Shown: piece by piece, positions 66 through 1,680 of the stretch
How the letters are laid out: every line of letters starts with the position of its first letter
Position numbering within the stretch: position 1 is the first letter of the stretch
Source of the DNA: Escherichia coli
GTDB lineage: Bacteria; Pseudomonadota; Gammaproteobacteria; Enterobacterales; Enterobacteriaceae
Assembly: GCF_003334335.1 (NCBI RefSeq)
Contig: NZ_QOWQ01000052.1
Length of the DNA: 20,350 bases
Reading direction: 5' to 3' (one strand)
The notes under the pieces: model-generated
Databases searched by the model: none
What the model was told of the DNA's origin: nothing
The model's input: the letters and a program-made list of their open reading frames with translations, nothing else
Made by a program: the position numbers and the translations under genes

Positions 66-314
66 TTAGCGCTTATGCTGCGCGATCCCCGCATCCGCCG
101 CTTCGCTACGAATTGCCACGCAAATATCGTTCGGCGTGGCGTTATTAAAATCGTCATGCCAGAAACCTGTGGTATCTAATAACGCTTTATTGGCGGGCGT
201 ACCCATCATTACGGAAACATCATCAACATTTTCTGATTCGCTGAGTTTTCGTGAAATAATCATTAAACTGACCGAATCCTGAAAACACCCTTTTTTAATA
301 AAGGCGTGGATCAT
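66..314 (-). CDS. fdrA: FdrA-like N-terminal ORF, 82 codons, apparently truncated
   Basis: ATG at 312-314, divergent from allD with a ~316-bp spacer as expected for fdrA. The protein begins MIHAFIKKG...DSVSLM, which resembles the FdrA/YahF family N-terminus. It ends at TAA 66-68, and the minus strand has stops in all three frames within 30-68, so no full-length fdrA can continue to the window edge. Confidence 0.5.
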   Translation of the reverse strand: MIHAFIKKGCFQDSVSLMIISRKLSESENVDDVSVMMGTPANKALLDTTGFWHDDFNNATPNDICVAIRSEAADAGIAQHKR

Positions 315-630
315 AACAACTCCTTAAAAATTGCACCCATGGCAATTGCACGAGCAGTGTTAATGTGGCGATTACGGTATCGATGACAACGAGTAAATAA
401 GGTGATGAATATCACACAGGAATTATTAACAAAAGAATTCAAATAACCGCCAGGCTATTACTCATTATTTTTTAATAAGCGTGGTTGTTTTAAAAATCAG
501 GTTAAAAGTGAGCGGATTATCAAATAAATTCTAACTATATTTTCTTGCCTGTCTGGATCACATAATCCAGATATTTTCCCTGTATGTTAATTGCAGTCAT
601 GCTTCACACCGTCGTTAAAAAGGAAGACAG

Positions 631-1680
631 ATGAAAATCAGTCGGGAAACACTCCACCAGCTAATTGAGAATAAACTCTGCCAGGCTGGGTTAAAACGTG
701 AGCACGCTGCAACCGTGGCTGAAGTATTGGTTTACGCCGATGCCAGAGGGATCCACTCTCATGGCGCGGTGCGCGTGGAATACTACGCGGAACGCATTTC
801 AAAAGGCGGCACCAACCGCGAACCGGAGTTTCGTCTTGAGGAAACCGGGCCGTGCTCGGCAATTTTACATGCCGACAATGCCGCCGGACAGGTCGCGGCG
901 AAAATGGGTATGGAACATGCCATCAAAACCGCCCAGCAAAATGGCGTTGCGGTGGTCGGTATCAGCCGGATGGGTCACAGCGGCGCAATCTCTTATTTTG
1001 TGCAGCAGGCAGCCCGCGCCGGATTCATTGGCATTTCGATGTGCCAGTCCGATCCAATGGTGGTGCCGTTTGGCGGCGCGGAAATTTACTACGGTACTAA
1101 CCCCCTGGCCTTTGCCGCGCCGGGAGAAGGCGACGAGATCCTTACCTTTGATATGGCGACTACCGTACAGGCATGGGGAAAAGTGCTCGACGCCCGCTCG
1201 CGTAATATGTCTATCCCGGATACCTGGGCGGTCGATAAAAACGGTGTACCAACAACCGATCCGTTCGCGGTACATGCTCTGCTCCCCGCCGCCGGGCCAA
1301 AAGGGTATGGCCTGATGATGATGATTGACGTCCTCTCAGGCGTCTTACTCGGCTTACCGTTCGGGCGACAGGTTAGTTCGATGTATGACGATTTACACGC
1401 AGGGCGTAATTTGGGGCAATTACATATAGTTATTAATCCGAACTTTTTCTCCTCCAGCGAATTATTCCGTCAACATCTTAGCCAGACCATGCGCGAATTA
1501 AATGCCATTACCCCCGCGCCCGGTTTTAATCAGGTTTATTATCCCGGACAGGATCAGGATATTAAACAACGCAAAGCCGCCGTCGAAGGCATCGAAATTG
1601 TTGATGATATTTACCAGTATTTAATTTCCGACGCGCTTTATAACACGTCATACGAAACGAAAAATCCCTTTGCGCAATAA
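631..1680 (+). CDS. allD: ureidoglycolate dehydrogenase (Ldh_2 family), 349 aa
   Basis: ATG at 631 preceded by AAGGAAG; 349-aa ORF; first gene of an allD-allC-allE cluster with short gaps; sequence recognised as AllD. Confidence 0.9.
   Translation: MKISRETLHQLIENKLCQAGLKREHAATVAEVLVYADARGIHSHGAVRVEYYAERISKGGTNREPEFRLEETGPCSAILHADNAAGQVAAKMGMEHAIKTAQQNGVAVVGISRMGHSGAISYFVQQAARAGFIGISMCQSDPMVVPFGGAEIYYGTNPLAFAAPGEGDEILTFDMATTVQAWGKVLDARSRNMSIPDTWAVDKNGVPTTDPFAVHALLPAAGPKGYGLMMMIDVLSGVLLGLPFGRQVSSMYDDLHAGRNLGQLHIVINPNFFSSSELFRQHLSQTMRELNAITPAPGFNQVYYPGQDQDIKQRKAAVEGIEIVDDIYQYLISDALYNTSYETKNPFAQ

Follow-up and report, generated by a model that had tools for sequence, protein, structure and literature searches.

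Organization of the allF–allD divergent region

The DNA analysed here, a stretch of 20,350 nucleotides from Escherichia coli referred to below as the window, corresponds to the E. coli allantoin cluster, as identified from the layout of its open reading frames and by BLAST against 5,426 complete E. coli genomes. The allD gene (631-1680, plus strand) is followed by allC and allE, the genes from glxK to gcl, allR and allA are located on the minus strand, and allS lies at 14773-15699 on the plus strand. Divergent to allD is the 5' end of fdrA, now designated allF (ORF 66-314, minus strand, ATG at 314), and the two genes are separated by a control region of 316 bp at positions 315-630, with the allD ATG at 631. 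The original prediction had described this spacer as AT-rich, which is confirmed by a GC content of 35% as compared to about 55-60% inside allD. The divergent layout is kept in Enterobacteriaceae, with a spacer length of ~295-316 bp in most of them, and at its allD end the spacer carries the ribosome-binding region AAAGGAAGACAG (619-630, plus strand), with an identity of 0.98 across genera.

The spacer is an already known, AT-rich control region that is shared by the divergent genes allD and fdrA/allF and depends on AllS. In E. coli, it controls the oxamate branch through which nitrogen from allantoin is used anaerobically. The original study of the allD promoter and of AllS is reportedly that of Rintoul et al. 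in 2002, and in Klebsiella allS is a virulence-associated locus.

At the other end of the truncated fdrA/allF reading frame, positions 1-77 of the window are the end of an IS4-family element (junction at 77/78), with 95.7% identity to IS421 over positions 1-92. This end carries the terminus of the element, ...CCCTTAAGTTAGCGCTTATG, along with 22 nt from the start of its transposase gene. Insertion took place in fdrA/allF after codon 79, leaving an ORF of 82 codons (66-314), and hence the allF operon is probably disrupted in this strain, with an intact promoter region. The same junction was found in 0 of 5,426 complete E. coli genomes.

Two inverted repeats in the spacer, ATTGC-N7-GCAAT at 330-346 and CTGGAT-N6-ATCCAG at 553-570, had been pointed out in the original prediction as dyads of the kind bound by the LysR-type activator AllS upstream of allDCE. 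Both repeats are present and each extends by one further base per arm, the first (dyad 1) to AATTGC-N7-GCAATT at 329-347 and the second (dyad 2) to TCTGGAT-N6-ATCCAGA at 552-571, the latter ending 60 bp before the allD ATG.

Published evidence for AllS, ArcA and CRP at the spacer

This exact region was studied by Kim & Kim 2025 (PMC12535856) using an allF'-'lacZ fusion, which was induced ~38-fold by anaerobiosis plus allantoin, and whose activity dropped ~40-fold in ΔallS and in ΔarcA with no change in ΔallR. In the same study, a PRODORIC AllS motif with a score of 1.00 had its centre at -181 relative to the allF ATG (window ~495), and ArcA motifs were predicted at -117, -134 and -163 (window ~431, ~448 and ~477). 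An AllS-expressing lysate shifted a 60-bp probe spanning -203/-144 (window 458-517), and a lysate with phosphorylated ArcA shifted a probe spanning -142/-83 (window 397-456). The lysates used in these EMSAs were crude, the sole negative control described was an unrelated protein (EBNA), and for AllS vector-only lysate, competitor and mutant-probe controls are not described (PMC12535856). The AllS probe, which represents the sole published AllS-DNA binding experiment, contains neither dyad: 35 bp separate it from the start of dyad 2 and 111 bp, on the opposite side, from dyad 1. It also leaves out positions 518-535 and the heptamer GATCACA described below.

The AllS motif is experimentally undefined, and a ChIP-seq-trained AllS model failed. 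Expression of allD is known to be induced anaerobically. Two further published records bear on the spacer, namely a motif called by a third-party sigma-70 predictor 271 bp upstream of fdrA, equivalent to window ~585 (PMC9843812), and a site tgTGTGAtattcaTCACCtta labelled allD/fdrA in a Footprint-seq preprint (2026, PMC12871828, Table 1), where it is reported as a novel in vitro CRP site with a Kd of 9.8 nM.

As had been stated in the original prediction, neither repeat is an AllR box. When the box TTGGAAWAWTWTTCCAA (AllR consensus KTTGGAAWAWTWTTCCAAC, PMC8222616) was scanned over the window with up to 3 mismatches, no match was obtained in 315-630, in line with the unchanged allF'-'lacZ activity in ΔallR. 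The only matches in the whole window were at 13099-13115 and 14649-14665; these are the perfect boxes TTGGAAAATTTTTCCAA, which precedes gcl, and TTGGAATATTTTTCCAA, which lies between allS and allA, and both locations agree with the literature. The box at 13099-13115 is crossed by the listed gcl ORF (623 codons, 11297-13168), and hence gcl must in reality start at a point further downstream.

Conservation of the spacer across Enterobacterales

A scan for AllD in species-representative genomes yielded 80 loci, with fdrA divergent from allD in 34 Enterobacterales loci. An alignment, A1, was made from 17 genera/species, and all 35 Enterobacterales spacers were anchored on conserved words. Per-position identity to the window was calculated from 15 non-Escherichia spacers, giving a whole-spacer mean of 0.62. 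Among six Escherichia sequences compared, SNPs cluster at 476-514, and positions 515-630 are nearly invariant. Dyad 1, the block at 515-535 discussed below and CTGGATCACA were each searched for elsewhere in the 20-kb window, where no further copy was found, and thus a regulon-wide motif could not be built. In the orthologous loci, allS is located beyond the 2.5-kb flanks.

Some orthologous spacers are 125-190 bp longer, with a length of 440-507 bp (Klebsiella spallanzanii, locus L018; Serratia sp. Ag1, locus L027; and loci L020, L028 and L033). In K. spallanzanii, the extra DNA sits between the CRP site and the block at -70, such that the CRP core and GATCACA are 279 bp apart as compared to 154 bp, which suggests an insertion, possibly of a small mobile element, that parts the two promoters.

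Whether symmetry of this kind exceeds chance was assessed with 2000 dinucleotide-preserving shuffles of 315-630, counting perfect inverted repeats with a spacer of 4-10 nt. Repeats with 6-bp arms occurred in the shuffles with a mean of 0.94 each and a probability of 0.54 for at least one, and for 7-bp arms the probability was 0.18. The total count of repeats in the spacer is mildly high (P = 0.04), with four nested hits that represent three distinct dyads, including TTTTAA-N8-TTAAAA at 488-507. Individually, neither dyad is beyond chance.

Dyad 2 and the predicted allD promoter

An invariant element of the spacer is the heptamer GATCACA (556-562, plus strand), which overlaps dyad 2 and has an identity of 1.00, being present in all 35 spacers, including those of Serratia, Erwinia, Pantoea, Budvicia, Pragia and Providencia. 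Exactly 20 nt after it, a TAnnnT hexamer occurs in 33 of the 35 spacers. In the window this hexamer is TATGTT (583-588, plus strand; identity 0.93), the putative -10 element of allD, from which transcription is predicted to start near 595. With this start, GATCACA would lie at about -39 to -33 and is a candidate contact for a promoter-proximal activator or for RNA polymerase. A simple sigma-70 scan for -35 and -10 elements found no plus-strand promoter in the spacer, as is expected if the allD promoter is activator-dependent.

Dyad 2 itself would occupy about -43 to -24 of the same promoter, which is the position of an activation site for a LysR-type activator, and being upstream of the predicted start it would not be transcribed from it. 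Its symmetry has a much narrower distribution than GATCACA. With at most one mismatch, the dyad was found in 3/35 spacers, all from Escherichia, besides one unrelated near-dyad in a Serratia, and the right arm (565-571) has an identity of 0.25 in the 15 non-Escherichia spacers, which is the chance level. Within Escherichia, it is invariant in the six sequences compared, with the exception of position 571. Most likely, dyad 2 consists of GATCACA and of Escherichia-specific flanking bases that complete the repeat by accident, and on this comparative evidence the symmetry as such would not be the functional feature.

These results bear directly on the original prediction, according to which dyad 2, and perhaps dyad 1, is a dyad-symmetric AllS operator that activates allDCE. 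Such an assignment could draw on the perfect 7-bp arms of dyad 2 at 60 bp upstream of the allD ATG, on its overlap with the invariant GATCACA and on its near-invariance within Escherichia. It is opposed by the published data, in which neither the predicted AllS site nor the shifted fragment 458-517 includes a dyad, by the chance-level identity of the right arm outside Escherichia and by the ease with which repeats as short as these arise in shuffled sequence. Moreover, dyad 2 has an even length, which places symmetric pairs at odd distances and makes a symmetric T-N11-A impossible. We therefore consider it very improbable that the dyads are the AllS operators. What stands of the original prediction is the dependence of the region on AllS and the location of dyad 2 at the predicted position of a promoter-proximal activator. 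As for the finding of AllS elsewhere with unconserved dyads, which had been named as evidence to the contrary, this is what was observed for dyad 2 and holds by half for dyad 1, which is kept in 13/35 spacers. The AllS-dyad reading is hence largely unsupported.

Several other assignments for the same positions were tried and rejected. GATCACA as one half of a CRP/FNR dimer site at ~-41 is not matched by its left half, since positions 547-551 are unconserved and are without TGTGA or TTGAT. A sigma-54 promoter (GG-N10-GC; TGGCAC-N5-TTGCA) was rejected by inspection, as TGGATCACATAATCC has CC for the required GC and its TGG is unconserved (CAG in Klebsiella). A MerR-type spacer operator was also considered, given the 20 bp between ATCACA and the -10 hexamer, but the centre of dyad 2 falls on the -35 region and not on the spacer. 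On the minus strand, a promoter-like sequence TTAACA-17-GATTAT (590-562) overlaps the spacer and the right arm of dyad 2 as well as the predicted -10 region of allD, and it is not conserved outside Escherichia.

Candidate AllS sites upstream of allD

Further upstream of the predicted allD start, a near-invariant block GATTATCAAATAAATTCTAAC (515-535, plus strand) is centred at about -70 (-80 to -60). It has an identity of 0.91 in the non-Escherichia spacers and a single occurrence in the window, and at the same position a perfect dyad, TTCAAA-N5-TTTGAA, is found in Erwinia and Pantoea. Judged by its conservation and position, this block is a better candidate for the main, high-affinity recognition site of AllS as a LysR-type regulator. 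Enterobacteriaceae carry TCAAATAAATTCTAAC, and Erwinia and Serratia carry TTCAAAGAAAATTTGAA instead. An IHF site at 518-530 was rejected: the match to WATCAA-N4-TTR is one base off, and the key C is unconserved in Klebsiella.

The annotated AllS site presents the opposite picture. The PRODORIC motif centred at ~495 is poorly conserved and lies in the fragment allFp -203/-144 (458-517) used in the AllS EMSA, and positions 485-507 have an identity of 0.44 against the spacer mean of 0.62 in the 15 non-Escherichia spacers. By this measure, no other part of the spacer is under less constraint than the region of the annotated AllS motif. Within Escherichia, too, this is the most polymorphic part of the spacer, with differences at 497, 500-503 and 508-514, and from the predicted starts it would be located at ~-100 for allD and at -128 for allF, neither of which is usual for a LysR-type activator. 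The stretch equivalent to 476-514 contains in Serratia, Erwinia and Pantoea a conserved TGTTAGAAAtATTCTAAtAAT, whose TGTTAGAAA core also adjoins the CRP site.

The view that follows from the database and from Kim & Kim is that a single AllS site at ~495, formed by TTTTAA-N8-TTAAAA at 488-507, serves both promoters, and that GATCACA and the block at 515-535 belong to ArcA, to an unidentified anaerobic regulator or to RNA polymerase. The score of the PRODORIC motif, the shift of 458-517 by the AllS-expressing lysate and the presence of a 6-bp-arm inverted repeat at 488-507 are all consistent with it, as is the anaerobic induction of allD by a regulator yet to be identified, and ArcA or this anaerobic allD regulator could be the alternative owner of both conserved elements. 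Set against it are the poor conservation, the polymorphism and the atypical positions of the ~495 motif, and the use of crude lysate with the limited controls described above. On balance, we consider this view rather doubtful. That the conserved elements, rather than the annotated motif, are the true AllS sites is a tentative possibility to which we give slightly more weight.

The block at 515-538 and a second conserved block at 422-447, described below, are alike in direct orientation (ATTAT...CAAAAGAATTCAAATAAC versus ATTAT CAAATAAATTCTAACTAT, 12/18 over the core), and the centre of each lies ~68-70 bp upstream of one of the two predicted starts. This likeness, which is not judged significant, may reflect binding of the same protein at both promoters or a coincidence of AT-rich DNA.

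Predicted allF promoter and its CRP site

On the allF side of the spacer lies a conserved CRP site, aaGGTGAtgaataTCACAca (398-419, centre 408.5). Its core GTGA-N6-TCAC (402-415) is invariant in 17/17 sequences of A1 and present in 32 of the 35 spacers, and the segment GGTGAtgaataTCACA (401-416) matches 9/10 bases of the CRP consensus TGTGA-N6-TCACA and is identical to the site bound by CRP in vitro with a Kd of 9.8 nM (PMC12871828). A hexamer TACCGT (TAnnnT; 374-379, minus strand) is the putative -10 element of allF: its T, A and final T are invariant in A1, and its spacing to the CRP core is fixed in 30 of 32 spacers. The start of allF is predicted near 367, which with the centre of the CRP site at 408.5 would give a distance of -41.5, i.e., a class II position.

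With the same start, the ArcA motifs predicted by Kim & Kim would be located at ~-64, -81 and -110. A conserved block, ATTATTAACAAAAGAATTCAAATAAC (422-447), covers the top-scoring of these motifs (~431) and is within the fragment 397-456 shifted by ArcA-P. The CRP site at 398-419 also lies inside this 60-bp ArcA probe (PMC12535856).

Dyad 1 in the predicted allF leader

Dyad 1 (329-347, minus strand) is located directly 5' of the allF Shine-Dalgarno sequence (324-319), 15 bp upstream of the allF ATG and 284 bp from the allD ATG. It would correspond to positions +21 to +39 of the allF transcript, which is not an activator position. Although dyad 1 formally contains a symmetric T332-N11-A344, as would be sought in an AllS site, this lies downstream of the predicted allF start, which argues further against an AllS operator.

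The arms of dyad 1 together with the 7-nt spacer are kept, with at most one mismatch, in 13 of the 35 spacers, all from one Enterobacteriaceae subclade. These include Escherichia, two of four Citrobacter-labelled isolates, Klebsiella, Raoultella, Superficieibacter and two metagenome-assembled genomes. Among the 35 spacers, dyad 1 is absent from the other two Citrobacter-labelled isolates, from Buttiauxella and Atlantibacter and from all more distant genera, and the genera without it still have the CRP site and the -10 hexamer.

A functionless origin of both dyads as chance features of AT-rich DNA would agree with the shuffle statistics and with the confinement of the symmetry of dyad 2 to one genus. 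However, the sequence formed by dyad 1, its spacer and the flank 3' of it to ~356 is near-identical from Escherichia to Klebsiella, Raoultella and Superficieibacter, and positions 357-400 diverge, indicating that the block containing dyad 1 is under constraint; in dyad 2, too, a part is invariant across the order. Chance alone is thus an unlikely explanation of the two dyads.

Since dyad 1 would be transcribed, an RNA hairpin in the allF leader with a role in translation, mRNA stability or attenuation, maybe together with a 9-codon upstream ORF, has to be weighed. A terminator-like structure ahead of a T-run is called at 356-334 of the minus strand, and the position directly 5' of the Shine-Dalgarno sequence would be suitable. 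The upstream ORF (341-311, minus strand; ATG GGT GCA ATT TTT AAG GAG TTG TTA TGA, encoding MGAIFKELL*) starts inside dyad 1, and its stop codon overlaps the allF start (ATGA). Equivalent short ORFs are found in many Enterobacteriaceae; however, the peptide is unconserved, there is no clear ribosome-binding site, and in E. whittamii the overlapping stop is lost, and owing to this inconsistent conservation the upstream ORF was rejected as an element of the leader. The leader of 69 nt folds with -11.7 kcal/mol (z = +0.45), and 131 of 200 shuffles fold at least as well. The arms of dyad 1 never vary in A1, and hence compensatory changes are absent from this alignment, and the loop is conserved to the same degree, an uncommon pattern for a hairpin with a purely structural role. 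A search of Rfam gave no match at threshold, with a spurious eukaryotic scaRNA hit of 21 bits against a threshold of 65. A hairpin function of dyad 1 is accordingly quite improbable. Its conservation pattern rather points to a clade-restricted leader element that is probably a protein operator and not an RNA hairpin. A protein bound there would be expected to act as a repressor or modulator and not as an activator.

Known operators were compared with dyad 1 by eye. A fit in both half-sites was given by none of RutR (TTGACCA-N2-TGGTCAA), NtrC (TGCACC half-site) and a PdhR/LldR-type AATTGG...CCAATT. The spacer of dyad 1, CACCCAT (335-341), matches 6/7 of the NarL/NarP heptamer TACYYMT, and CACCCAT or CACTCAT is kept across the clade with dyad 1; a NarL site was nevertheless rejected, as this is a single heptamer and not both half-sites. 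A sigma-54 promoter at dyad 1 was also rejected, the spacing in TGGCAATTGCA being wrong.

Model of the two promoters and comparison with known systems

The best overall explanation, which we hold to be somewhat better than even, is that the spacer contains two activator-dependent sigma-70 promoters in which the conserved elements, and not the symmetry of dyad 2, are functional. The two promoters would be arranged back to back with their starts ~228 bp apart. In that of allD, a -10 element TATGTT (583-588) with a start at ~595 and no usable -35 element would be preceded by GATCACA at -39 to -33 and by the block at -80 to -60, and AllS would most likely contact the block at 515-535 for recognition and GATCACA for activation, in a LysR-type layout. 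In that of allF, a -10 element at 379-374 (minus strand) with a start at ~367 would be served by a class II CRP site at -41.5 and by ArcA sites upstream of it, with dyad 1 as an element of the transcribed leader just before the ribosome-binding site. Both starts, which are deduced from the conserved TAnnnT hexamers and fixed spacings, are inferences, and so are the attribution of GATCACA and 515-535 to AllS and the part played by dyad 1; the sequences, their conservation and the fixed spacings are observed, and CRP binding in vitro and the dependence of allF expression on AllS and ArcA are published observations.

A more far-reaching version, in which the database AllS operator at ~495 is wrong or secondary, the true allD sites are 515-535 and GATCACA, and the allF leader has in dyad 1 a clade-specific operator for some further regulator, is possible but is proposed with caution. 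If true, dyad 1 would add another level of control to the oxamate branch. GATCACA at ~-36 and the block at ~-70 of the predicted allD promoter appear to be without description in the literature reached, and the result is an incremental refinement of a known regulon and not a new kind of system. In practical terms, as the dyads are not the conserved signals, footprinting and mutagenesis are better aimed at GATCACA, the block at ~-70 and the putative class II CRP site of allF.

The annotated AllS site of PRODORIC and Kim & Kim (PMC12535856) shares with the original prediction the intergenic region and the regulator invoked, but it lies at least 35 bp from dyad 2 and at least 111 bp from dyad 1. 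A closer likeness to the block at 515-535 is offered by the operator of PunR (YdhB/AdnB), a LysR-family paralogue of AllS, which reads TsttwTCAAwAwwwTTGaaGGCA (bioRxiv 10.1101/2020.05.03.074617): positions 516-531 (TTATCAAATAAATT) fit 13/14 positions of ttwTCAAwAwwwTT, and both regulators control purine-nitrogen catabolism. However, AllS shares only 31% identity with PunR, and the match is a loose one to an AT-rich motif of low information, whose spacing is N5 as compared to TCAA-N7-TTGA in the Erwinia-type dyad.

With class II CRP promoters such as galP1, the predicted allF promoter would share a site at -41.5, in this case GGTGA-N6-TCACA with a Kd of 9.8 nM in vitro and conservation in 32/35 spacers; unlike at established promoters of this class, the start and the CRP dependence of allF are predictions, and the CRP site is not one of the dyads first noted. 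At LysR-type promoters, a recognition site near -65/-75 is combined with an activation site over the -35 region. The predicted allD promoter resembles those of the BenM/CbnR/OxyR type in having elements at ~-70 (515-535) and ~-36 (GATCACA), a weak or absent -35 element and an operon activated by AllS. It differs from them in that AllS binding to these elements is at present a prediction and in that dyad 2 is no conserved dyad, and the element at ~-70, only a degenerate dyad in E. coli, is a perfect one in Erwinia and Pantoea.
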